Shown here: positions 1,075 through 57,930 of the stretch, in pieces
Position numbering within the stretch: the stretch's first letter is position 1
Layout of the letters: every line of letters begins with the position of its first letter
From: an uncultured archaeon
Lineage (GTDB): Archaea; Aenigmatarchaeota; Aenigmatarchaeia; QMZP01; JACQNV01
Direction of reading: 5' to 3'
NCBI GenBank assembly: GCA_964410585.1
Contig: CAYPFW010000002.1
Coordinates: 78,207-142,206, forward strand
DNA length: 64,000 nt
Made by a program: the position numbers and the translations under genes
The notes under the pieces: model-generated
Told to the model about the DNA's origin: nothing
The model's input: the letters and a program-made list of their open reading frames with translations, nothing else
The model's database searches: none

Positions 1075-1201
1075 AGAATAATATGGGAACCTTTTTATAT
1101 AAGCTTTCAAAATATAATATATCAAAATATGATATATATTAGTGGTTGTCAAGTTGGATGACTCTCTATTGTTGTGTAGAAAATGGTAAAATCATAGTCA
1201 T

Positions 1202-3538
1202 ATGACAACGGAAAAAGTCCAAATCAGGGTAGAGGGCATGCACTGTGCTAGCTGCGCAGCTAAAATAAAATCTGCTTTAAAAAAGGTTGATGGAATAAAA
1301 AATTCAAACGTAAATGCGCTTACTAAAATTGCGCTTGTAGAATTTGAAAGCAAAAAAATTGATTCTCATAAAATTATTAATTTGATAAAAGGTCTTGGTT
1401 ATAAACCTTTTCTAGAATCAGTAGACCAAGGTTCCACTGCCACAGATCCTGTTTGTGGAATGAAGATTGAGAAAAGTAAGTCAATAAAAAAAGAATTTGC
1501 TGGAAGAATATACTACTTTTGCTCTGAGGAATGTGTCAATAAGTTTGAGTCGCCTGAACAGGAATTAAAAAAAATGAAAAGAAGGGTCACAGTAGCCCTT
1601 TCTGGTGTGCTTTTCCTCGGAATAATTCGTGTAATAGCAATGTTCGCTTTGGCTGCAGGTGCCTCAATTGTGACATGGGTTCCAATACCAAGTCTTCCAT
1701 ATTTCACTTGGGGTGTTTGGCTCTTTTTGATAACAACGCCAATCCAGTTTATCGGTGGTTGGGGATTCTATAAAGGCGCATACACAGCTTTGGTGAACAA
1801 AAGAATAAACATGGATATTCTGATAACAATTGGTACTCTAACAGCTTACATATACAGCGTTTTTGTTGTTTTCTTCCCAAACGTTTTGCCTGTAGACGAA
1901 ACTAATGTTTACTTTGAAGTTTCTGCTGTCATAATAGCTTTTGTTCTGCTTGGAAAATTTATGGAAGATTATATGAAAAGAAGGACGTCTGCTGCTGTCA
2001 GAAAATTAATGGATATGCGGCCGCAGACTGCAACAGTGATAAGAAATGGGAAGGAAAAAGAAATTCAGGCTGACCAAATTGTTGTCGGTGATATAATTGT
2101 TGTAAGGCCTGGGGAAAAAATACCAACGGATGGAATTATAGTAAGTGGATACACTTCAATAGATGAGTCAATGGTGACAGGAGAGAGCATACCAGTTGAA
2201 AAAGAAAAAGGCGATGAAGTCATTGGTGCGACTGTGAACAAGCATGGTTTGATAAAATTTGAAGCGACAAAAATTGGTGCAGAAACGACATTGATGCAGA
2301 TTGTGAAAATGGTTGAAGAGGCCCAGGGATCGAGTGCGCCAATACAAAGACTTGCAGACAAAGTTTCCAGCTATTTTGTGCCAGCTGTAATCGGAATTGC
2401 TGTTTTGTCATTTTTAGTTTGGTATTTAGTTTTAGGTAACTTCACTCTTGGTCTTCTATCGTTTATAGCTGTTTTGATAATTTCTTGTCCATGTGCTCTG
2501 GGGATAGCGACACCTGCGGCGCTTATGGTTGGTGTTGGAAAAGGAGCAGAGAGCGGCATTTTGATAAGAGGTGGAGAGTATTTGGAACGGACACAGAAAT
2601 TGAACACGATTATTTTTGACAAAACAGGAACACTAACAAAAGGGCAACCTGTTGTCACTGATATTGTTTCAGAAAGCCCAAAAGACTTGATCAAGTTTGC
2701 TGTAATCGCAGAGAAAGGTTCAGAGCATCCTCTTGCAGATGCAGTAATGGAAAAAGCAGAAGAGATGAAAATAAAAATCCCAGACGCTGATAGGTTTGAG
2801 GCTGTTCCAGGGCATGGTGTGAAAGCTATTTTTGGAAAGAACAAGATATTTGTTGGAAACAGGAAACTGATGGCCAAAAATTCAATAGATATCAAGGCCT
2901 TTGAAAAAAGGATGGAAGGCCTGGAAAGTGAAGGGAAAACTGTGATGTTGGTTTCTTTGGATAAAAAAGTTCTGGGAATTGTTGCAATTGCAGACACTTT
3001 GAAAGAAACGTCGAAGGAAACAGTAAAACAGCTTTCTGATTTGGGTGTTCAAACAATTATGTTGACGGGCGACAATGAGAAAACAGCTAAATCAATTGCA
3101 AAAAGTGTTGGAATAGAAAATGTGATAGCAAATGTTTTGCCTGGAGAAAAAGCTAATGTTGTGAAAAAAATCCAAAAAGAGGGCAAGGTCGTTGCAATGG
3201 TTGGAGATGGGATAAATGATGCGCCTGCTTTAGCCCAAGCAGACATAGGAATAGCAATTGGTTCTGGGAGCGATGTTGCAAAAGAGACAGGTGGAATAAT
3301 CCTTGTAAAAGATAATCTTCTAGATGTTGTAACAGGTATCAAGCTAAGCAAGGCAACAATGAGAAAAATAAAACAAAATCTATTCTGGGCATTTGCCTAC
3401 AATGCAGCTGCAATACCAATCGCAGCTTTTGGAATGCTGAACCCAATAATAGCTGCAGCAGCAATGGCCTTGAGCTCGCTTACAGTTGTTGGAAATTCTG
3501 CGCTTCTGAAGAGGTATAAAATAAGAGTTGAGAATTGA
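1202..3538 (+). CDS. copA: Copper-exporting P1B-type ATPase (CopA-like) with an N-terminal HMA domain and a YHS/TRASH domain
   Basis: HMA motif [15 protein letters not shown]; YHS/TRASH motif DPVCGMKI...[12 protein letters not shown]; membrane CPC motif (SCPCALG); phosphorylation motif DKTGTLT; GDGINDAP hinge. Length 778 aa. Confidence 0.9.
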
Positions 3539-5118: not shown

Positions 5119-5148
5119 TTGCTAACCTCTTTATTTTCAATTGTATAT

Positions 5149-5206
5149 CGTTTCTCTTTGGGTACGGTATACTTTCTCTTTTTGAAAGAGAAAGGATAGC
5201 TCTACT
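5149..5206 (+). ncRNA. Copy A of a repeated intergenic element: 5' box TTTCTCTTTGGGTACGGTAT, a 10-bp hairpin CTTTCTCTTT/AAAGAGAAAG, and a 3' box GGATAGCTC
   Basis: Conserved ends shared with copies at 45038, 52489, 57647 and (opposite strand) 16098. The hairpin shows compensatory changes (CTC/GAG) relative to copy B (T/A). It lies between the blaI stop and the blaR1 start. Confidence 0.45.
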
Positions 5207-5711: not shown

Positions 5712-6230
5712 ATGAAAAAAGAGACGATAAAGTCAAATGGTCTATTAGACCATACAATAAAGGTGCTAAAAAAGAATTCAAAAACATTTTTAGTAGCCAC
5801 TGTTTTGTTTGGTCTTATATATACATTCATATATGGATTATGGCTTATCCCTGCAATAGGTTTTGGGTTCCATAGAGACTCAGCTGTTACAGTTTTGGAT
5901 TGGGCCTATTTGCCTCTAGTATCGCTGATGTCTGGTTCCTTGGTTACACTAATGAAATATAAATTAAATACAATGAGTACAAGTACAATTGGTGGATTTG
6001 GTGGTGTAGTAGCCGGTTTGGGTGCTGCTTCGTGCCCGGTTTGCCAAGGAGTGACCATAGCAGCTTTCGGTGGAAATATAGCTTTCCTCTCATTCGGCGA
6101 TTTCTCGCCATTTGTTTGGGTCTTCCAAGCAACTGCTGTTTTTATTCTCTGGATATCATTATATTTAACTGCAAATAATCTATATACAAATAATTGCATT
6201 GGGTGCATTTCAGGCAGAAAGCCTAGATAA
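5712..6230 (+). CDS. Hypothetical polytopic membrane protein with a CPVCQG motif
   Basis: About 4-5 predicted TM segments and a Gly-rich stretch GGFGGVVAGLGAASCPVCQG. No confident family. Confidence 0.35.
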   Translation: MKKETIKSNGLLDHTIKVLKKNSKTFLVATVLFGLIYTFIYGLWLIPAIGFGFHRDSAVTVLDWAYLPLVSLMSGSLVTLMKYKLNTMSTSTIGGFGGVVAGLGAASCPVCQGVTIAAFGGNIAFLSFGDFSPFVWVFQATAVFILWISLYLTANNLYTNNCIGCISGRKPR

Positions 6231-13393: not shown

Positions 13394-16105
13394 ATGAAAT
13401 GTCCTTTTTGCAGTCATCCAGAAACAAAGGTTATAGATAAAAGAGAGTCTGAAGAAGACTCAAACAGAAGAAGAAGGGAATGCCTTTCATGTGGCAAGCG
13501 CTTCACAACATACGAAAAGCTTGAGTTAAGCTCATCCAAAAAAGTCGACAAATTAGTGAAAAGAGATGGAAGAATAGCTGATTTTGATGCCTCAAGAATA
13601 GAGTCTGCAATTTTCAAGGCAGCAAAGGCAGTTGGTGGTACTGATAGAGAAAGGGCAAAAAAACTAGCAGACGAAGTAATGGAGCAAGTCAACAAAAAGT
13701 TCCTAGGGAAAAAAGACCTCCCAACAGTAGAAGACATCCAAGACATTGTTGAAAAAGTCCTCATCGAAAATGGTCATGCAAAAACAGCAAAGGCCTACAT
13801 CATTTACAGGCAAGAGCGTGCAGAGCTAAGAAATGAAAAAAGAAGAATCTTGGAAAAAGAAGATGTTGACGATGTTGACAAAGTTTTCGACCTAAATGCA
13901 CTTAGAGTTTTGAAATCCAGATATTTGCGAAAAGACGAAAACGGCAAGCTAATCGAAACCCCAAAGCAACTTTTTACTAGGGTAGCAACACATGGAGCGC
14001 TTCCAGATATTTTGTATGACCCTCAATTATACGACATCTCAAAATCTCAGCAACAGCACCCAAAAGAATCTTTCGATCCAAAAACAAACCACGAAAAATA
14101 CAGCATAGGAAAATACAAACTAAACCAATATCACCTGGATGCTTTCAAAAGAATGTATGATAGGTTCAACAAAAATCACCAAATGAAATTCTCATGGTCC
14201 CAGGTTTTGGAAAAGCTTTCAAAAGGTGAACTAAGTTCTTATGAAAAAAATATCACAGAGTTCTATGACATAATGGTCAACAGACAGTTCATGCCAAACA
14301 CACCGGCTATAGCTAATTTTGGAACAGTTCTAGGAATGGGCTCTGCTTGCTTTGTTTTGGGAATAAGAGACTCAATAGACGATATAATGGAAAAATTAAA
14401 ACATGCAGCAGTCATCTTCAAATCAGGCGGCGGAGTCGGCTACAACTTCTCACACCTAAGGCCTGAAGGCGATTTGGTTTCTTCAACATGCGGTCTTGCA
14501 TCTGGTCCCTTGTCTTTCATGTCTATGTTCGACAAAATGACAGAGGTCATCAAACAAGGTGGTATTCGCCGAGGCGCAAACATGGGAATAATGAACTCAG
14601 ATCACCCAGATATTGAAAAATTCATAACAGCAAAAGCAGGCAACAAGGCCTTCAAAAACTTCAACATCTCAGTAAATATCCAACCAGACTTTTGGCAATA
14701 CTATGAAAAAAATGAGCCCTATCCTTTAAGAAATCCAAGAGACGGAACAGTTGTCAAAACAGTTAATTCACGGATGCTTTTTGACAAAATAGTTTACCAG
14801 GCATGGGAATCAGCAGAGCCAGGAGTCATCTTTTCAGACAAAGTAAATGAATACAATCCTTTATACGAATCAATGGGCCCAATTGAAACAACAAATCCTT
14901 GCGGTGAGGTACTCTTGTATCCAAACGAGTCATGCAACCTAGGATCAATAAACGTCTGGGCTTTTGTCAAAGAAGATGTGGATGGAAATGTTTCCTTTGA
15001 TTGGGAAAACTTAGCCCGCGTCTCTCGGTTAGGAGAAAAATTCCTGGACAATGTCATCGAAGTAAACAAGTGGCCTCTACAAGACATAGAAGACATGGCC
15101 TTGAACACAAGAAAAACAGGCCTTGGTGTCATGGGAGTTGGCGACCTTTTGTATGAATTAGGTCTTCCTTATAATACAGATGAAGGCAGAAACTTCATGG
15201 AGAGGCTGATGGAATTTGTCAACTTCTACTCAAAAGTCGAAGGCATCGAACTTGCAAGAACAAGAGGACCTTTCCTATACTACGACAAAAGCTTCTATTC
15301 TGAAGGTAAGCTTCCTTTTGCTGGTTTCTACGACAAAAAATCCTGGAGAATGGACTGGAACCAAATAGTCGACGGCGTCCAAAAACATGGAGTAAGGAAT
15401 GCATTCACAATTGTCGTCGCTCCAACAGGATCAATATCAATGATAGCAGGCTGCTCTTCAGGCATTGAACCTGTCTATTCTTTGGTTTTCGAGAAAAATG
15501 TGAAAGTCGGTTCCTTCTACTATGTGAATCCTATATTCGAAAAATGGATGAGAAGAGAAGGCTTATTCGACGAAAAACTAGTAGAAGATGTAAATGCAAA
15601 CAAAGGAACAGTCAGAAGAGTCGGCTATATTCCAAGAAAATTCAAGGAAATGTTTATCACAGCAATGGACACAACGCCAGAAGACCATATAAGAGCCTTG
15701 GCAGCATTCCAAAAATGGGTTGACTCATCGATCTCAAAAACAAACAACTTCCCGGCAGATGCAACAGTTGAGGATATGAGACAATCTTATCTCCTTGCAT
15801 ACAAGCTAGGATGCAAAGATGTAACTGTGTTTAGAGACACATCAATAAAGGACCAGGTCTTGGTTTCAGGCGTTAAAAAGTCTGAAAAACACGCAGCTGA
15901 CACTGGTTTGAAACCTCAGTTAGGAAAAGAATGGACACCAGAACAACCAATAGCAGTTTCAACAAGTGGTAGTTTCTACCAACAACCAAAAGTAACTACA
16001 AACTTTGGGGAAAAGCCAAAAGTCTGCCCATCTTGTGGATCTGAAACCAAAAGAGAAGAAGGCTGTGTATCTTGCCCTGGCTGCGGTTGGGGCATGTGTA
16101 GCTAG
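13394..16105 (+). CDS. nrdJ: Class II (adenosylcobalamin-dependent) ribonucleotide reductase NrdJ with an N-terminal NrdR-like zinc ribbon plus ATP-cone and a C-terminal zinc ribbon
   Basis: N-terminus MKCPFCSHPETKVIDKRES...RRRECLSCGKRFTTYE matches the NrdR Zn ribbon; ATP-cone (VKRDGRIADFDASRIESAI). Catalytic core hallmarks: NPCGE (nt region 14881-14941), the LGSIN context, and the C-terminal CPSCGS...CVSCPGCG ribbon. Length 903 aa. Confidence 0.85.
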   Translation: MKCPFCSHPETKVIDKRESEEDSNRRRRECLSCGKRFTTYEKLELSSSKKVDKLVKRDGRIADFDASRIESAIFKAAKAVGGTDRERAKKLADEVMEQVNKKFLGKKDLPTVEDIQDIVEKVLIENGHAKTAKAYIIYRQERAELRNEKRRILEKEDVDDVDKVFDLNALRVLKSRYLRKDENGKLIETPKQLFTRVATHGALPDILYDPQLYDISKSQQQHPKESFDPKTNHEKYSIGKYKLNQYHLDAFKRMYDRFNKNHQMKFSWSQVLEKLSKGELSSYEKNITEFYDIMVNRQFMPNTPAIANFGTVLGMGSACFVLGIRDSIDDIMEKLKHAAVIFKSGGGVGYNFSHLRPEGDLVSSTCGLASGPLSFMSMFDKMTEVIKQGGIRRGANMGIMNSDHPDIEKFITAKAGNKAFKNFNISVNIQPDFWQYYEKNEPYPLRNPRDGTVVKTVNSRMLFDKIVYQAWESAEPGVIFSDKVNEYNPLYESMGPIETTNPCGEVLLYPNESCNLGSINVWAFVKEDVDGNVSFDWENLARVSRLGEKFLDNVIEVNKWPLQDIEDMALNTRKTGLGVMGVGDLLYELGLPYNTDEGRNFMERLMEFVNFYSKVEGIELARTRGPFLYYDKSFYSEGKLPFAGFYDKKSWRMDWNQIVDGVQKHGVRNAFTIVVAPTGSISMIAGCSSGIEPVYSLVFEKNVKVGSFYYVNPIFEKWMRREGLFDEKLVEDVNANKGTVRRVGYIPRKFKEMFITAMDTTPEDHIRALAAFQKWVDSSISKTNNFPADATVEDMRQSYLLAYKLGCKDVTVFRDTSIKDQVLVSGVKKSEKHAADTGLKPQLGKEWTPEQPIAVSTSGSFYQQPKVTTNFGEKPKVCPSCGSETKREEGCVSCPGCGWGMCS

Positions 16106-16228
16106 CCTTTTCCGGCAGTCCCCGCTTGCTCAAAAGGCTCGTGTCTCCAACTAGCAGAGTGAACTGTTAATAGTTCACAGACATCTCTGCATCATCTCCC
16201 GAGAGATGCAGATACCGTACCCAAAAAA
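16098..16228 (-). ncRNA. Copy E of the repeated intergenic element (reverse orientation) with a GC-rich insert of about 100 nt between the conserved ends
   Basis: On the minus strand the 5' end reads TTTTTTGGGTACGGTAT (plus 16212-16228) and the 3' end reads GAAAAGGCTAGC (plus 16098-16112, overlapping the RNR stop codon). The interior is GC-rich with hairpins (TCTGCATC...GATGCAGA). Confidence 0.4.
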
Positions 16229-16354
16229 CTACATTACAAAAGTGGAAGGCGTAATTTTTTCGAGCTTGCAAGCGAAGAAAAAATAGCCTCATGTTTTGGT
16301 TAAGCTTTTGGATAAAAGGTTAAGTCTGGGGTTCTCATCCAAAAAGAAAAAGTT

Positions 16355-44107: not shown

Positions 44108-44413
44108 CTAAGACACAAAAACATTTCTAAGTTTCTCAGTGAAAATGCTTCTTGGATACACTTTGCATCCCACTTCTTTTGCTTTTCTTATCAGCTCTGC
44201 ATTTTTATGTGAGCAAAATCCCAAAACCTTTTCTGGGAACCTTTTGGCAATATCAAAGCTTCCCTCTTCTTCCAAATCTAAAATTAGGTGGTCAAATTCG
44301 CCAACTAAACCATCGGGCGAATTAACAAACTCAAAATCTGCACCAAGCCTTTTCAACTCAGCCTCAATTTTCGCCCTGAAAAAGAGATCTTTGACAAAAA
44401 CTAGAATTTTCAT
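44108..44413 (-). CDS. Hypothetical small protein (possibly a receiver-like fold)
   Basis: 101 aa, MKILVFVKD... alternating beta/alpha pattern; weak. Confidence 0.3.
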   Translation of the reverse strand: MKILVFVKDLFFRAKIEAELKRLGADFEFVNSPDGLVGEFDHLILDLEEEGSFDIAKRFPEKVLGFCSHKNAELIRKAKEVGCKVYPRSIFTEKLRNVFVS

Positions 44414-44433: not shown

Positions 44434-44688
44434 TCAGTAAACAGTGCTTCTATGATCTATTTTAACAATTCCAAGAAGATTGTTGCCCTTATCAACCTCA
44501 TATAAAATCCTATAATCACCAACTCTGACTCTGTAAATATTTTCAGTATATCCTTCAATTTTCTTCACTTCTTGTGGAAATGGGTTGCTTCTAAGTTCCT
44601 CTATCTTGTTGAGAATTCTCTCAGCTAATTTTTTATCTATTCTTTTGAAGAACTTTAGTGCTTGACTAGAATATCGTACTGTGAACAT
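44434..44688 (-). CDS. RelE/ParE-family type II toxin
   Basis: 84 aa, ...YRVRVGDYRILYEVDKGNNLLGIVKIDHR matches the RelE/ParE C-terminal signature. Confidence 0.65.
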   Translation of the reverse strand: MFTVRYSSQALKFFKRIDKKLAERILNKIEELRSNPFPQEVKKIEGYTENIYRVRVGDYRILYEVDKGNNLLGIVKIDHRSTVY

Positions 44689-44882
44689 TACAATCCTAAT
44701 TCTTTTTTTAGTTGCTCGTGAGAAATGAGTTTGCCTGAAGATTTCTCTTTCCTGTAAGCTAATAGTGACTCATAGTCGTCTTCAGTCATTATACTATCTA
44801 TATCTACCATATGATCTTTTATTTCGTGTATTTCTTTCTCTATTTTGTTCAATTTTTCCAAAACCATTTGTTGGGTGTCCAT
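44688..44882 (-). CDS. Putative antitoxin partner of the RelE/ParE toxin
   Basis: 64-aa acidic helical protein; its stop overlaps the toxin start (ATGA junction at 44688). Confidence 0.5.
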   Translation of the reverse strand: MDTQQMVLEKLNKIEKEIHEIKDHMVDIDSIMTEDDYESLLAYRKEKSSGKLISHEQLKKELGL

Positions 44883-45037
44883 ATGGTTAATAATTGTTCA
44901 GTGTATATAAATAATTTCTGATGATCATTCGACTAAAAAATAAAAAATCCCGGGAGTGAGACACTCGAAAAGTTGGTAAACCAACAATTTATCGAATTCG
45001 TGGCTCAGTTCTTTGAACAGACCGCTTATGTATAATA

Positions 45038-45090
45038 GTTTTCTTTGGGTACGGTAGACTTTCTTTTTCTAAAAGAAAGGCTAGCACTCA
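45038..45090 (+). ncRNA. Copy B of the repeated intergenic element: 5' box TTTTCTTTGGGTACGGTAGA, 9-bp hairpin CTTTCTTTT/AAAAGAAAG (loop TCT), 3' box GCTAGCACTC; followed by a 110-nt GC-rich stretch (45091-45200)
   Basis: Near-identical ends to copies A, D and E. The adjacent GC-rich segment contains long-range complementary blocks (TATCGG/CCGATCG). Confidence 0.45.
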
Positions 45091-45272
45091 CGACCTATCG
45101 GTGTCTGAACGATTGCGTTTGGCAAATGCTAAACTGCACGCGCCTACAGCCGATCGCTCTAAGCCACTGGGCTACCCCGGGATTGTATTATTTGCAACGA
45201 GTGATTTATATTAGTTTTTGGATGAGCAACTCAATCAACGCTTTTAATCCAATATATTCAACTAATTATATG

Positions 45273-46439
45273 AAATTTGTGATATTCCACGGGTCTTTTG
45301 GGAGTCCTGAAGGCAATTGGTTTCCAGAGCTGAAAGAAAAACTGGAGCATTTTGGTCAAGTTGTCCTTATTCCAAAATTCCCTGTAGACAGTTGGAATGA
45401 GCTGACAAATAACCCAAAAAAACAATTGAATCAAAGCCTTGAAAGCTGGCTCAAAGAGTTTGAAAGAATCCAAAAAACTTTCAAAAAAGACGAAAAACTC
45501 TGCCTTGTTGGTCACTCTCTTGGTTGTCTTTTCATCCTCCATGTTGTATCAAAATACAATATCAGCCTTGACAGTGCAATTTTTGTCTCACCCTTTCTGG
45601 AAAAACTAAACAAACAGTGGCAAATAGATTTAGTGAATAAAACATTTTACAAAACAGACTTTGATTTCAAAAAACTGAAAGCCTCAATCCCAGTTTCCTA
45701 TGTTTTGTATTCAGACAATGATCCATATGTTGACAAAAAATATGCTTTGGATTTTGCTGAAAAAACAGGAAGCTCGGTGATTTTTGTGAAAAGTGCGGGA
45801 CACATGAATGCTGAAGTCAACCTAAATGAGTTTCCTCTTGTCTACGAGCTTTGCAAAACAAGGCTCGATCTTTCCCTATACCAAAGCTACCTTGCACATA
45901 GAAGGGAGCTGTTCTCAGTCGACTACACAAAGGGAAAAACAGAAGAGATAGTTTTCATCGATCCAAAAGAAATAATTGACGAGGGTGTCTTCCATTTCAG
46001 GAATCTCAAAAAATCAGGCTTCTGCACATTCTACACTGCACTGGATTTCTCAGACCCAGAATCAATATACATGAAAGAAGCAAGAAAGGCGGCAAAAAGA
46101 ATCAAAGATCTGACTCGAGTTTTCATAGTAAACGATCTCGCGGACTTGGAAAAAGAAAATATTAGGAAACAAATCAAACTTGACATAGAATCGGGCATCC
46201 GCGTATATTTCTGCATGTTTGGTTCAGTAAAAGATTTGTCAGAACCTGATTTTGGTATTTGGGACGAAGACTATTTGTGCATTGTTAACTTTGACAAAAA
46301 CAAAGTGACAGGTGTCAAATTGACAAGCCGGGAAAAAGATATATCAGAAGCATTGAAGTGGAAGGAAAAAATTCTGAGCAAAGCAACAAAAATAAATTCA
46401 GAAAAAGATATAGAAGATTTTAGGAGAAAACATGAGTGA
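45273..46439 (+). CDS. Serine hydrolase (RBBP9/YdeN-like alpha/beta fold) fused to a C-terminal domain of unknown function
   Basis: MKFVIFHGSFGSPEGNW..., nucleophile elbow VGHSLGC, C-terminal GHMNAE. The listed ORF start at 45045 is rejected because that region is the GC-rich non-coding segment. Confidence 0.6.
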   Translation, partial: KFVIFHGSFGSPEGNWFPELKEKLEHFGQVVLIPKFPVDSWNELTNNPKKQLNQSLESWLKEFERIQKTFKKDEKLCLVGHSLGCLFILHVVSKYNISLDSAIFVSPFLEKLNKQWQIDLVNKTFYKTDFDFKKLKASIPVSYVLYSDNDPYVDKKYALDFAEKTGSSVIFVKSAGHMNAEVNLNEFPLVYELCKTRLDLSLYQSYLAHRRELFSVDYTKGKTEEIVFIDPKEIIDEGVFHFRNLKKSGFCTFYTALDFSDPESIYMKEARKAAKRIKDLTRVFIVNDLADLEKENIRKQIKLDIESGIRVYFCMFGSVKDLSEPDFGIWDEDYLCIVNFDKNKVTGVKLTSREKDISEALKWKEKILSKATKINSEKDIEDFRRKHE

Positions 46440-51485: not shown

Positions 51486-52478
51486 TTAGAATAGGCTTTT
51501 TATAATAAGCGTGCCATAGCTGCCCTTTGGAAGCTCGAAGGAAATACTAAGCTTCTTATTTTTGTTTATTTCGTCTTCTCCTATTTTCCAGGAAACTCTT
51601 TTAGGGAAAACCAAAAAATCCCTTTCATCTCCCGGAAAGCTTATTTCTTTGAAAATATTTTTGAAGTCCTCGAGTTTAATGCCTTCTTTTTTTAGTAGCT
51701 TTTGGATATTTTTCTTTATTTTTGGATAGCTCTCCAATCTTGTTGCAAATCCAACAACCGGAATTTTAAAGTTAGATGTTTTTTCAGACGCCGATTCCAT
51801 AACATAAGATCTTGCCAGTGTATTCCACAAATAGGACTGGTAAGAGTTCACAAAAAGCATCTTCAAGTTTTTAGGCAAGCACTCTAAAGCGCCTTGAAAA
51901 TCATTTGGGTTTTTGCCCAAATATTCTAATACTTTATTCTCCCATTGACCTTTGTTTTTCACAAACAGGTTAACAGCGGCCTCGAAATCTTTTTTAACCA
52001 AGTATTTGCCAATTAAATGGTTCTTTTTGGTCAGTCCAAATCTCTGCTCATCAAAAAGGTTTACAACACCCCTTTTTAGTTTTTCTATTCTTTTATCCAA
52101 TCCTCTAATGTCCTTTTTGAACAAATCTCTTACAACTATTTCAAACCTATTTCCCTTCAAATCCTTTGTTTCAATCCTTCTGTTGTTTTTGTCAAGGTTA
52201 GAGAGCTCAACATCTTTTATTTGTATTTTTTTCAAAACTTCTTCAGAAACTCTCCAAGCTGAAACTGTTTGGTAGGTAACAGCATTTTTGTCTTTCAATC
52301 CAACATATGAAAACCGATTTGTAGAGACGCCGCATTTTTTAGCCAATAGATCCAAAACCTTGAACAGTTCCCAATTTTTTTTCTTCAAAGTAAACCAAGT
52401 ATACTCGCCCTCGCCAATTGGTTTTTTAGAAACAATTTCTTTGACAATGAAATCTTCTGGGAGTTGTTTGATTTTCAT
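51486..52478 (-). CDS. truD: tRNA pseudouridine(13) synthase TruD/Pus7-like
   Basis: N-terminus LPEDFIVKEI; catalytic Asp context VGLKDKNAVT. Confidence 0.7.
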   Translation of the reverse strand: MKIKQLPEDFIVKEIVSKKPIGEGEYTWFTLKKKNWELFKVLDLLAKKCGVSTNRFSYVGLKDKNAVTYQTVSAWRVSEEVLKKIQIKDVELSNLDKNNRRIETKDLKGNRFEIVVRDLFKKDIRGLDKRIEKLKRGVVNLFDEQRFGLTKKNHLIGKYLVKKDFEAAVNLFVKNKGQWENKVLEYLGKNPNDFQGALECLPKNLKMLFVNSYQSYLWNTLARSYVMESASEKTSNFKIPVVGFATRLESYPKIKKNIQKLLKKEGIKLEDFKNIFKEISFPGDERDFLVFPKRVSWKIGEDEINKNKKLSISFELPKGSYGTLIIKSLF

Positions 52479-52488
52479 ATTTGAATAT

Positions 52489-52533
52489 TATTTTTCTTTA
52501 TGTACGGCTCTCTTTCTTTTTCTAAAAGAAATA
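52489..52533 (+). ncRNA. Copy C of the repeated intergenic element (degenerate: TTTTTCTTTATGTACGGCTC plus 8-bp hairpin TTTCTTTT/AAAAGAAA)
   Basis: Matches copy B over CTTTCTTTTTCTAAAAGAAA; the 3' box is lost. It sits 11-55 bp upstream of the truD start. Confidence 0.35.
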
Positions 52534-52537
52534 ATAA

Positions 52538-53191
52538 TTACACAAATCCTAAAATATCTGATATCCTCTCCAACTCGGGTCCAGATGTTTGGAAACCAAC
52601 TAATAAACCGGATGAATTTGTAATGACCCCAGATTTTACGTAAGAATATCCGAAATTCACAGTTGCTGGTCCTGATTTAACTTTCAAAACATCTTCCAAA
52701 ACTCTTTGCTCATGTTCAGTGATGTTCTTTGCAGTTAAGCATCCTTTATTATTGGCCGCTCCATATGTTCCAACTAAGTCTATTCCAAAAATTGTTGATA
52801 TTTCTGTCTTCACACCAAGGAAATCCTGTATCTTATTTTTTTGATAAGCCAATTTTTCTGATATCAGGCACCCTTTATCATTTGCCAAAACAAGGTTACC
52901 CAAGGCTGTATGCCTTCCCTCCAAAACAAGCACATTTGCCTGCTTTTTCAAGCTTTCCAATTCCCTGTTTCTTATGATTTCAGGGACAAGTATACCATTT
53001 GAATTTCCAGCGCAAAATATTCCTGGAAGGTCTGTACCAGAGATTTTGTTTTGGATAATTTTTACATTTAGTGCTTCGTGTAATTTGTCTGCCTCTTTCT
53101 TCATTACTTCGCCAACTAAACAATATCCATCAGTAGCAAAGGCATAGAGTCCTATGTTCGGATCATTGCTAAAGGCCAATTTATCGATCAT
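52538..53191 (-). CDS. eif6: Translation initiation factor 6 (aIF6)
   Basis: Pentein-fold repeats with ALGN and repeated G-[ST]-x-N motifs; 217 aa. Confidence 0.75.
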   Translation of the reverse strand: MIDKLAFSNDPNIGLYAFATDGYCLVGEVMKKEADKLHEALNVKIIQNKISGTDLPGIFCAGNSNGILVPEIIRNRELESLKKQANVLVLEGRHTALGNLVLANDKGCLISEKLAYQKNKIQDFLGVKTEISTIFGIDLVGTYGAANNKGCLTAKNITEHEQRVLEDVLKVKSGPATVNFGYSYVKSGVITNSSGLLVGFQTSGPELERISDILGFV

Positions 53192-57609: not shown

Positions 57610-57646
57610 AGGTAAATAGAATTAGTTGCTTATGATTTGTATCCTA

Positions 57647-57930
57647 GTTTTCTTTGGGGTACCTTACCACTTTCTTTTTCGTGTCTCCTCTTTGCAAAGT
57701 TGACACGAGATCAGTGTCTCAGCAATGCAATGGACACTGAGACATCTCATCATCCAATATACTCTGTGAGATGCTGATTGAGTGAGCAACAGCGAACTCC
57801 TGATACAGAAACTGATCCGCAGATCAGTTTCCAGCTACGACTGTGCTCACTGCTCATGTGCTGTTGCACATGACATCTCGTCATCTCTTACACCGGCGAG
57901 ATGCCGATCTAAAAGAAAGGGGTTAGACTC
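57647..57930 (+). ncRNA. Copy D of the repeated element: conserved ends (TTTTCTTTGGGGTACCTTACCACTTTCTTTTTC ... TCTAAAAGAAAGGGGTTAGACTC) enclosing a 227-nt GC-rich structured insert (57681-57907)
   Basis: The two hairpin arms of the short copies are here separated by an insert rich in inverted repeats (GTGTCTCAGCAATGCAATGGACACTGAGAC) and two GACATCTC(A/G)TCATC motifs. The supplied ORF 57782-58024 lies inside and is considered spurious. Confidence 0.45.

Follow-up and report, generated by a model that had tools for sequence, protein, structure and literature searches.

The GC-rich block at 45091-45200 of a 64,000-nt stretch of contig CAYPFW010000002.1, from an uncultured archaeon (the whole stretch is called the window below), is, judged from its sequence, most of a minus-strand tRNA-Tyr(GUA) gene (45181-44948) with the archaeal C1-G72/A73 identity set. 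The gene is probably functional, and is modelled as being interrupted by three protein-spliced introns of the bulge-helix-bulge (BHB) type, which would be removed from a single cis transcript by the splicing endonuclease EndA and a ligase. The window is AT-rich (about 36% GC) and encodes the archaeal markers eIF-6 and TruD, as well as a ParE toxin module and a serine hydrolase; its host is an AT-rich, DPANN-like archaeon. A first-pass annotation had described the block as a GC-rich, structured segment lying beside one copy (copy B) of a short repeat element. The GC-rich character stands, as 45128-45188 is one of the few non-coding GC islands, but the segment is not an anonymous one: it consists of tRNA-Tyr exons 1 and 2 and the canonical intron between them. 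Nor does the repeat merely adjoin it, as had been proposed, for copy B is contained in an intron within the T-loop of this very tRNA. The parts of the gene are as follows, with L009 and L135 denoting contigs of related lineages that carry orthologues.

45204..45213, minus strand: putative TATA box TAATATAAAT, ending 22 nt upstream of C1
44948..45181, minus strand: tRNA-Tyr(GUA) gene, a 234-nt precursor region modelled as four exons and three introns from Rfam, ARAGORN and the orthologues
45144..45181, minus strand: exon 1, with acceptor strand CCCGGGG (beginning at C1), D-arm GCCC-AGTGGCTTA-GAGC, anticodon stem ATCGG and loop CU-GUA-G37; 65.8% GC
45103..45143, minus strand: intron 1, 41 nt, at the canonical position 37/38, with an imperfect BHB motif
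45087..45102, minus strand: exon 2, with A38, anticodon stem CCGAT, variable loop AGGTC and T-stem GTGAG; identical in L009 and L135
44997..45086, minus strand: intron 2, 90 nt, at position 53/54, with a relaxed BHB motif (HBh′ type); it holds element copy B
45029..45085, minus strand: element copy B, within intron 2
44991..44996, minus strand: exon 3, the micro-exon TTCGAT, 6 nt, T-loop positions 54-59
44962..44990, minus strand: intron 3, 29 nt, at position 59/60, with a full hBHBh′ motif
44948..44961, minus strand: exon 4, with U60, T-stem CTCAC, acceptor strand TCCCGGG and discriminator A73
44935..44947, minus strand: oligo-T tract TTTTTTATTTTTT (T6AT6), the likely terminator, also found after the L009 and L135 orthologues

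Read on the minus strand from 45181, the sequence runs CCCGGGG-TA-GCCC-AGTGGCTTA-GAGC-G-ATCGG-CTGTAG, then 41 nt, then A-CCGAT-AGGTC-GTGAG. In permissive mode, 45181-45087 is aligned to positions 1 to about 53 of the Rfam tRNA model, with a 44-nt insertion in the anticodon loop, and beyond this point the model finds no further matching sequence at the locus. After a gap of 126 nt comes the 3′ end of the tRNA at 44960-44948, CTCAC-TCCCGGG-A with TTTTTTATTTTTT after it, and it pairs perfectly with the 5′ parts from C1-G72 through G7·U66. C1 is thus position 45181, G72 is 44949 and A73 is 44948, and the CCA end is not encoded. C1-G72, A73 and G34 together form what we take to be the archaeal tyrosine identity set recognised by TyrRS, C1-G72/A73 being the archaeal and eukaryotic version. 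The complementarity TATCGG...CCGATCG that had been noted across the block is real, and is the anticodon stem ATCGG/CCGAT rather than an unspecified structure. The unspliced locus is matched neither by ARAGORN, with or without its intron mode, nor by Rfam at the gathering threshold; when spliced in silico, ARAGORN reports it as tRNA-Tyr(gta), a canonical cloverleaf of 74 nt (plus CCA). The exons are 60.8% GC and the introns 40.6%, and the geometry of the TATA box matches that of the other tRNA genes and of the leaderless protein genes in the window. The D-stem has a C12·A23 mismatch (GCCC/GAGC, minus strand, 45157-45172) that is also present in the L009 orthologue and, being conserved there, looks like a feature of the lineage rather than decay.

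Orthologous genes were found in two related lineages. The hydrolase next to the tRNA has close homologues, and contig L009, whose hydrolase is 81% identical, is syntenic with the window: its tRNA-Tyr gene sits between the hydrolase and the same small downstream gene. Contig L130, of the same lineage as L009, was the sole return from a scan of metagenome contigs with a clade-specific tRNA-Tyr pattern, while L135, which represents a third lineage, was found through the small downstream gene and has its tRNA-Tyr in the same gene neighbourhood. Two other loci with hydrolase homologues (P0002 and P0005) are not syntenic and have no tRNA. In L009, L130 and L135 the T-arm is uninterrupted, reading GTGAG-TTCGACT-CTCAC-TTCCGGG-A followed by oligo-T, and intron 2 is absent from all three. 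Each has a long intron at 37/38 (156 nt in L009) that shares the core TAGCATTTG(C/T)CAAACGCAATCGTT with the 41-nt intron of the window. The spliced tRNA of the window differs from that of L009 only at G7/A7, at two D-loop nucleotides (a 2-nt indel), at U59/C59 and at C67/U67; all stems stay paired despite these differences, and the spliced T-loop reads TTCGATT compared with TTCGACT in the orthologue. Because the T-arm of the relatives is uninterrupted, the 126 nt between GTGAG and CTCAC are taken to be a recent acquisition of the window's lineage, and the two T-loop introns to be recent gains. A wider background was obtained by scanning reference genomes with a degenerate tRNA-Tyr pattern, which gave at least 120 archaeal tRNA-Tyr loci from many classes; 110 of 120 can be parsed as having an intron at 37/38 and an uninterrupted T-loop of 7 nt, and among the loci listed there is none that resembles the gene in the window or comes from its clade.

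The 37/38 introns of the relatives (L009, about 1112-1267, minus strand; L135, 1-137) keep the shared core and carry extra inserts besides. Among these inserts are an inverted repeat, GAAGCTGAA...TTCAGCTTC, that has boxes like UGAUGA/CUGA, and a helix formed by CAGCTAGAA/TTCTAGCTG.

Splice sites were placed using a BHB convention derived from the canonical 37/38 case, in which two 3-nt bulges on opposite strands are 4 bp apart and are each cut between the second and third nucleotide. At intron 1, the outer helix is the anticodon stem (5 bp) and the central helix (H) forms three of its four pairs; the intron core, TAGCATTTGCCAAACGCAATCGTT, is kept in L009 and L135. At intron 2, H is C48G49U50G51/CACG (four of four pairs), the bulges are AG|U and AA|U, and h′ is GCU/AGC. 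Intron 3 has the T-stem as its outer helix h (5 bp), UUCG/CGAG as H, the bulges AU|A and UG|U, and AA/UU plus a GUUGG/CCAAC hairpin as h′. The two borders of exon 3 are predicted independently of each other, one by the 3′ bulge of intron 2 and the other by the 5′ bulge of intron 3, and in the spliced product the T-loop (UUCGAUU), the 5-bp T-stem and the 7-bp acceptor stem are all restored. In the real sequence, the path through 53/54 and 59/60 is the sole solution with both central helices fully paired (4/4) and a TTCRANN loop. Comparable splice paths occurred in 191 of 200,000 dinucleotide shuffles of the 126-nt insert (about 0.1%, p about 0.001). When the intermediate with intron 2 spliced out is folded without constraints, the T-stem and the UUCG/CGAG helix reappear together with the 3-nt UGU bulge (z = -2.7), and in the unconstrained fold of the cis precursor UCGUG/CACGA closes the 90-nt intron.

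Two other structures were considered. A single large T-loop intron would leave TTCGAGTGT, giving a 9-nt T-loop, and has no central helix at its junction, so the two-intron path is preferred. A functional role for a 9-bp match between GUGGCUUAG in the D-arm and CUGAGCCAC in an intron, seen in the global minimum free energy (MFE) fold, was set aside, the rough chance expectation of such matches being about one.

The following maturation pathway is proposed. Transcription would start about 22 nt downstream of the TATA box (45213-45204), read the whole 234-nt gene and stop at T6AT6 (44947-44935). Such read-through in cis is feasible, because there is no T run of 5 or more inside the precursor (the longest is 4); runs of T5 or longer are found in 46% of the 126-nt windows of this genome. 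The 3-nt bulges would be cut by the archaeal EndA and the exons joined by an RtcB-type ligase. The 41-nt intron at 37/38 would be the ancestral canonical intron. The 90-nt intron at 53/54 would be recognised through its relaxed helix-bulge-helix, formed by pairing of exon nucleotides C48-G51 with the intronic CACG and of GCU with AGC. Its removal would join G53 to the micro-exon UUCGAU and allow the T-stem to form, and this in turn would create the full BHB motif for the 29-nt intron at 59/60. The 53/54 intron would accordingly leave before the 59/60 intron, and the expected product is a canonical 74-nt tRNA with the T-loop UUCGAUU. Copy B of the repeat element would be a passenger inside the 53/54 intron.

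Several points weigh against this reconstruction. The BHB motif of intron 2 is relaxed, lacking an outer helix between exons and having an h′ of only 3 bp, and it would have to close around a structured insert of 76 nt. The central helix of intron 1 contains one U·U mismatch, and the MFE fold takes another register there. When the precursor was scanned blind for strict or generic BHB motifs, many false sites scored equally and the true sites were not distinct; because the generic scan is this noisy, BHB geometry alone is weak evidence, and significance comes from the combination of geometry with restoration of the T-loop. Exon 3, at 6 nt, is very short. The helices of the new introns have no covariation support among the two relative lineages found, neither of which has T-arm introns. 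The mature tRNA-Tyr and its splice junctions are predicted rather than observed, and a second, intact tRNA-Tyr gene may be present elsewhere in the genome, of which 64 kb are in view.

Two further tRNA genes in the window also carry non-canonical introns.

60544-60414, minus strand: tRNA-Gly(GCC), missed by ARAGORN and Rfam, and exposed by a scan for GC islands and T-arm motifs
59850-59764, minus strand: more likely tRNA-Thr(CGU), reported as tRNA-Lys(UUU) by ARAGORN at default settings and as tRNA-Thr(CGU) in its intron mode

The introns of tRNA-Gly were placed by enumerating deletions and then analysing the BHB motifs. One is at 15/16 in the D-loop (60529-60500, 30 nt, H GUAU/GUAC, 9-bp h′) and the other at 29/30 in the anticodon stem (60486-60457, 30 nt, H AUAC/GUAU, 5-bp h′). 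The spliced 71-mer is accepted by ARAGORN, with a slightly irregular register of the D-stem and position 26. For tRNA-Thr, the top BHB solution is a 15-nt intron at 30/31 in the anticodon stem, which gives a perfect 5-bp anticodon stem, and this outcome validates the bulge convention. Counting tRNA-Tyr, three of the window's four tRNA genes thus need non-canonical splicing of the same relaxed H-plus-h′ type as tRNA-Tyr intron 2. Since tRNA-Gly and tRNA-Thr also have such introns, the organism appears to splice them routinely, which implies a splicing endonuclease of broad specificity in this lineage.

The element within intron 2 belongs to a repeat family of about 50 nt. Copies at 5142-5191, 45029-45078 and 52482-52531 are 80-82% identical, further copies are at 16215 (inverted) and 57656, and a 17-mer, GGGTACGGTAGACTTTC, has three matches in comparison with 0.03 expected. 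An nhmmer profile built from the five copies returned exactly those five and no other significant copy in the window, and copy B, with its 9-bp hairpin, is a genuine member of the family, as the first-pass annotation had held.

Copy B, minus strand: GCTAGCC at 45085-45079, 9-bp hairpin at 45079-45059, box ACCGTACCCAAAGAAAAC at 45055-45038, TATA-like TATTATACA at 45037-45029
5134-5206 (minus), 16177-16246 (plus), 52474-52547 (minus) and 57630-57699 (minus): the other four copies, each with the hairpin, ACCGTACCCAAAGAAAAC and a TATA-like box, between co-directional genes

All five copies point with the transcription of their flanking genes, and copy B is for this reason best read on the minus strand, not on the plus strand as first described. 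The order of parts is constant: the upstream stop (tRNA exon 2 in the case of copy B), (A)GCTAKCC, the hairpin, (T)ACCGTACCCAAAGAAAAC, a TATA-like TA..ATAC box, and then the next gene. The hairpin is kept through a compensated extra base pair in copy A and through unrelated sequence in copy E, and in the MFE fold of copy B the flanking boxes GUGCUAG and CUACCGUAC pair around it. The downstream half of the element resembles both the archaeal TFB-recognition element (BRE) with its TATA box and the promoter region of the tRNA-Tyr gene itself (CCAAAAACTAATATAAAT). The spacing between the element and the next start codon would suit a promoter in copies A and D, but copy C lies too near the start codon of TruD to act as one. 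A clean terminator-plus-promoter cassette was rejected as a description of the element, both because its hairpins are not followed by T tracts and because of this position of copy C. Among 132 loci, the element box was found only in the window's own species, and the tRNA-Tyr genes of L009 and L135 lack the element. As in mobile elements and miniature inverted-repeat transposable elements (MITEs), it is multi-copy (five in 64 kb) and differs in presence or absence between relatives; at the junctions no clear terminal repeats or target duplication were seen, and the internal boxes pair around the hairpin. By its sequence, the element is a lineage-specific intergenic repeat composed of an extended hairpin and a promoter-like A/T-rich box, and it may serve as a promoter cassette, act as an RNA element or be a MITE-like repeat.

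A partial box, CCCAAGAAAACTAATATGCATTT-ATG, is found upstream of the ORF (open reading frame) that starts at 5712. Hairpin-rich stretches devoid of a long ORF lie directly upstream of copies D and E (57690-57900, minus strand, and 16100-16210, plus strand), the former preceding a small ORF that begins MDRRNRDKPKW. Permissive scans of these stretches gave no Rfam match at an E-value of 1 or below, and they could be unannotated non-coding RNAs.

Joining of unrelated sequences at the repeated hairpin during assembly was considered as an origin of the interrupted gene. Such a chimera is excluded by the fact that both sides belong to one tRNA, by the synteny with L009 and by the agreement of independent contigs: in two independent Logan contigs from a single sample each side recurs without a difference, and the contigs share the 23-nt hairpin as their overlap. 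Short-read assemblies of the same species (L001, 10038-11421; L131, 1-215) break exactly in the 20-23-nt hairpin of the repeat.

A ParE module, consisting of an antitoxin-like ORF (64 aa) and a ParE-family toxin (84 aa), occupies 44434-44882 on the minus strand. It lies between the 3′ end of the tRNA-Tyr gene and the small conserved gene at 44108-44413. L009 and L135 have no such pair at the corresponding position, so the locus has also gained a toxin-antitoxin module.

If the repeat and its adjoining DNA were simply inserted into the T-loop, the gene would be a disrupted pseudogene with fortuitous splice motifs, and a functional tRNA-Tyr would be encoded elsewhere. We regard this as unlikely. 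It would suit the recency of the interruption, which is missing from both related lineages and from 110 of 120 archaeal tRNA-Tyr genes among the matches listed, as well as the multi-copy repeat within the insert, the gain of the ParE toxin-antitoxin pair at the same locus relative to L009, the relaxed BHB motif of intron 2 and the restriction of the view to a 64-kb window of the genome. A path that restores the T-loop with both central helices fully paired is, however, expected in only about 0.1% of random inserts, and the resulting T-arm matches that of the orthologue except at the variable position 59. The terminator is intact, and the acceptor and T stems on either side of the insert still pair perfectly, the change at 6-67 and 7-66 being compensated. 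As a rule, small archaeal genomes contain just one tRNA-Tyr gene, and two other tRNA genes of the window are workable only through non-canonical splicing; both facts count against a decayed copy.

It is also conceivable, at a rather low probability, that the locus is an evolutionary intermediate between an intron-containing and a split tRNA, in which a promoter-bearing repeat sits in the T-loop intron and the 3′ quarter is trans-spliced at 53/54. The promoter-like box AAAGAAAAC-TATTATACA within the 53/54 intron would then fire, and the 3′ quarter would also, or only, be made as a separate transcript and be joined in trans by EndA and a ligase at the same junctions. This transcript would comprise the leader AGCCACGAA, exon 3, intron 3 and exon 4, and would pair with the 5′ transcript via CACG/CGUG and AGC/GCU. 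The TATA-like box of the element ends 41 nt before exon 3; with the TATA-to-start spacing of 22-27 nt seen for the tRNA genes and leaderless protein genes of the window, transcription would begin at about 45007-45001, just upstream of AGC-CACG (45003-44999), which is part of the splice helix. The resemblance of the box to the tRNA-Tyr gene's own promoter region, the promoter-compatible placement of copies A and D with respect to the next start codon and the orientation of all copies with transcription point the same way, and examples of trans-spliced split tRNAs are known from Nanoarchaeum and Caldivirga (PMC4033280). Against this, exon 2 is followed by no run of five or more T, so that transcription from upstream would be expected to continue and produce the cis precursor in any case. 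The pairing between the pieces amounts to only 7 bp (H plus h′). Known split tRNAs pair over 12-14 GC-rich bp. Copy C is too near the TruD start to be its promoter, which makes the promoter reading insecure, and the pieces are only 90 nt apart on one strand rather than at separate loci. The single cis precursor with three introns is the favoured reading. Should trans-splicing prove to be true, the locus would offer a natural snapshot of the origin of split tRNAs ('introns first, splitting later'), and its break point in the T-arm would be a new one among the split tRNAs described so far.

The original proposal of an anonymous GC-rich structured segment beside copy B, perhaps with a second element in reverse orientation sharing the GCTAGC palindrome, has almost no probability left: the region is indeed non-coding for protein and CCCGGGGTAGCCCAGTGG weakly resembles the copy D box GGGGTACC, but the block is an Rfam-aligned tRNA with orthologues and gives no significant match to the element profile. 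The minus-strand CCCGGGGTAGCCCAGTGG is present at 45181-45164, where it forms the acceptor stem and D-arm and not a degenerate inverted element. The profile of the copies has no significant match there in either orientation, and its only plus-strand match near exon 1 (45053-45086, E = 0.46) is the palindromic hairpin itself.

The antisense of the tRNA gene has affected the annotation of the neighbouring hydrolase.

45273..46439, plus strand: serine hydrolase gene, 388 aa, starting MKFVIFHGSFG; Pfam Ser_hydrolase
45045..45272, plus strand: spurious 5′ extension of the hydrolase ORF, 76 codons, antisense to the tRNA-Tyr exons and intron and to the promoter region

A mechanical ORF from the TTG at 45045 to 46439 would encode 464 aa. 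The aligned homologues start at MKFV(I/M)FHGSFG or within it, cluster at lengths of about 385-400 aa, and in no case have the extension, in agreement with the earlier view that the protein starts at 45273 and that 45045-45272 is non-coding for protein. The public call for the hydrolase of the window (P0001, listed as 389 aa) also starts at the MKFV site. That the ORF caller had over-extended the gene to 45045 was likewise borne out, as the same was done in a public assembly (L001), where the ORF was extended through the tRNA gene to give a 460-aa fragment. At standard thresholds, ARAGORN and Rfam miss at least two tRNAs of the window, including the essential tRNA-Tyr, and a third is assigned to the wrong isotype, while the antisense of tRNA-Tyr inflates a neighbouring protein ORF. 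Because disrupted tRNA genes escape detection in this way, inferences of 'missing tRNAs', genome completeness or auxotrophy in small archaeal genomes can be artefacts.

The tRNA-Tyr gene of the window belongs to the already known multi-intron archaeal tRNA genes. In Thermoproteales, up to three protein-spliced introns per tRNA have been described (Sugahara et al. 2008, reviewed in PMC4033280 and PMC4090602). Non-canonical introns with BHB or HBh′ motifs occur in the D- and T-loops and stems of other archaea, and EndA alone removes such relaxed introns (PMC3241643). Members of DPANN with a loop-bearing EndA show increased disruption of tRNA genes, and hidden disrupted genes have been suspected (PMC5829648). 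The gene shares with the Thermoproteales examples the BHB or relaxed HBh′/bulge-helix-loop (BHL) motifs, the restoration of the cloverleaf on intron removal and the limit of three introns, a known maximum that it would reach outside Thermoproteales. It differs in that its host is AT-rich and DPANN-like rather than a crenarchaeon, in the 90-nt intron with its multi-copy promoter-box repeat and the 6-nt exon, and in its T-arm introns, which the nearest relatives found lack, suggesting a very recent gain. The locus is accordingly a testable case for the gain of tRNA introns, and possibly for the splitting of tRNA genes.

Compared with the split and tri-split tRNAs of Nanoarchaeum equitans and Caldivirga maquilingensis (PMC4033280), the pieces would similarly be joined at BHB motifs by EndA and a ligase, and promoter-like sequence precedes each of them; the closest parallel is provided by the adjacent 5′ and 3′ halves of tRNA-Asp in A. 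pernix and T. aggregans (PMC4033280). In the window, by contrast, the pieces follow one another on one strand and no terminator separates them, complementarity between leader and trailer is limited to 7 bp, and the break is at 53/54 in the T-arm instead of at 37/38, 29/30 or 25/26. The tRNA-Thr of Caldiarchaeum subterraneum (PMC3293823) offers another likeness, as there too a tRNA gains an intron or becomes split together with repeated DNA, and populations or lineages are heterogeneous. The insert in that case is a 1.8-kb element encoding a recombinase (PMC3293823), whereas the repeat in the window is a non-coding sequence of about 57 nt for which neither transposition machinery nor terminal repeats nor a target duplication have been identified. 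In its C1-G72 pair, A73, GUA anticodon and intron after G37, the gene conforms to the canonical archaeal tRNA-Tyr(GUA), from which it departs by two additional T-loop introns. What is unusual is the combination, outside Thermoproteales, of three introns, a 6-nt micro-exon and a 90-nt T-loop intron that carries a multi-copy, promoter-like repeat.

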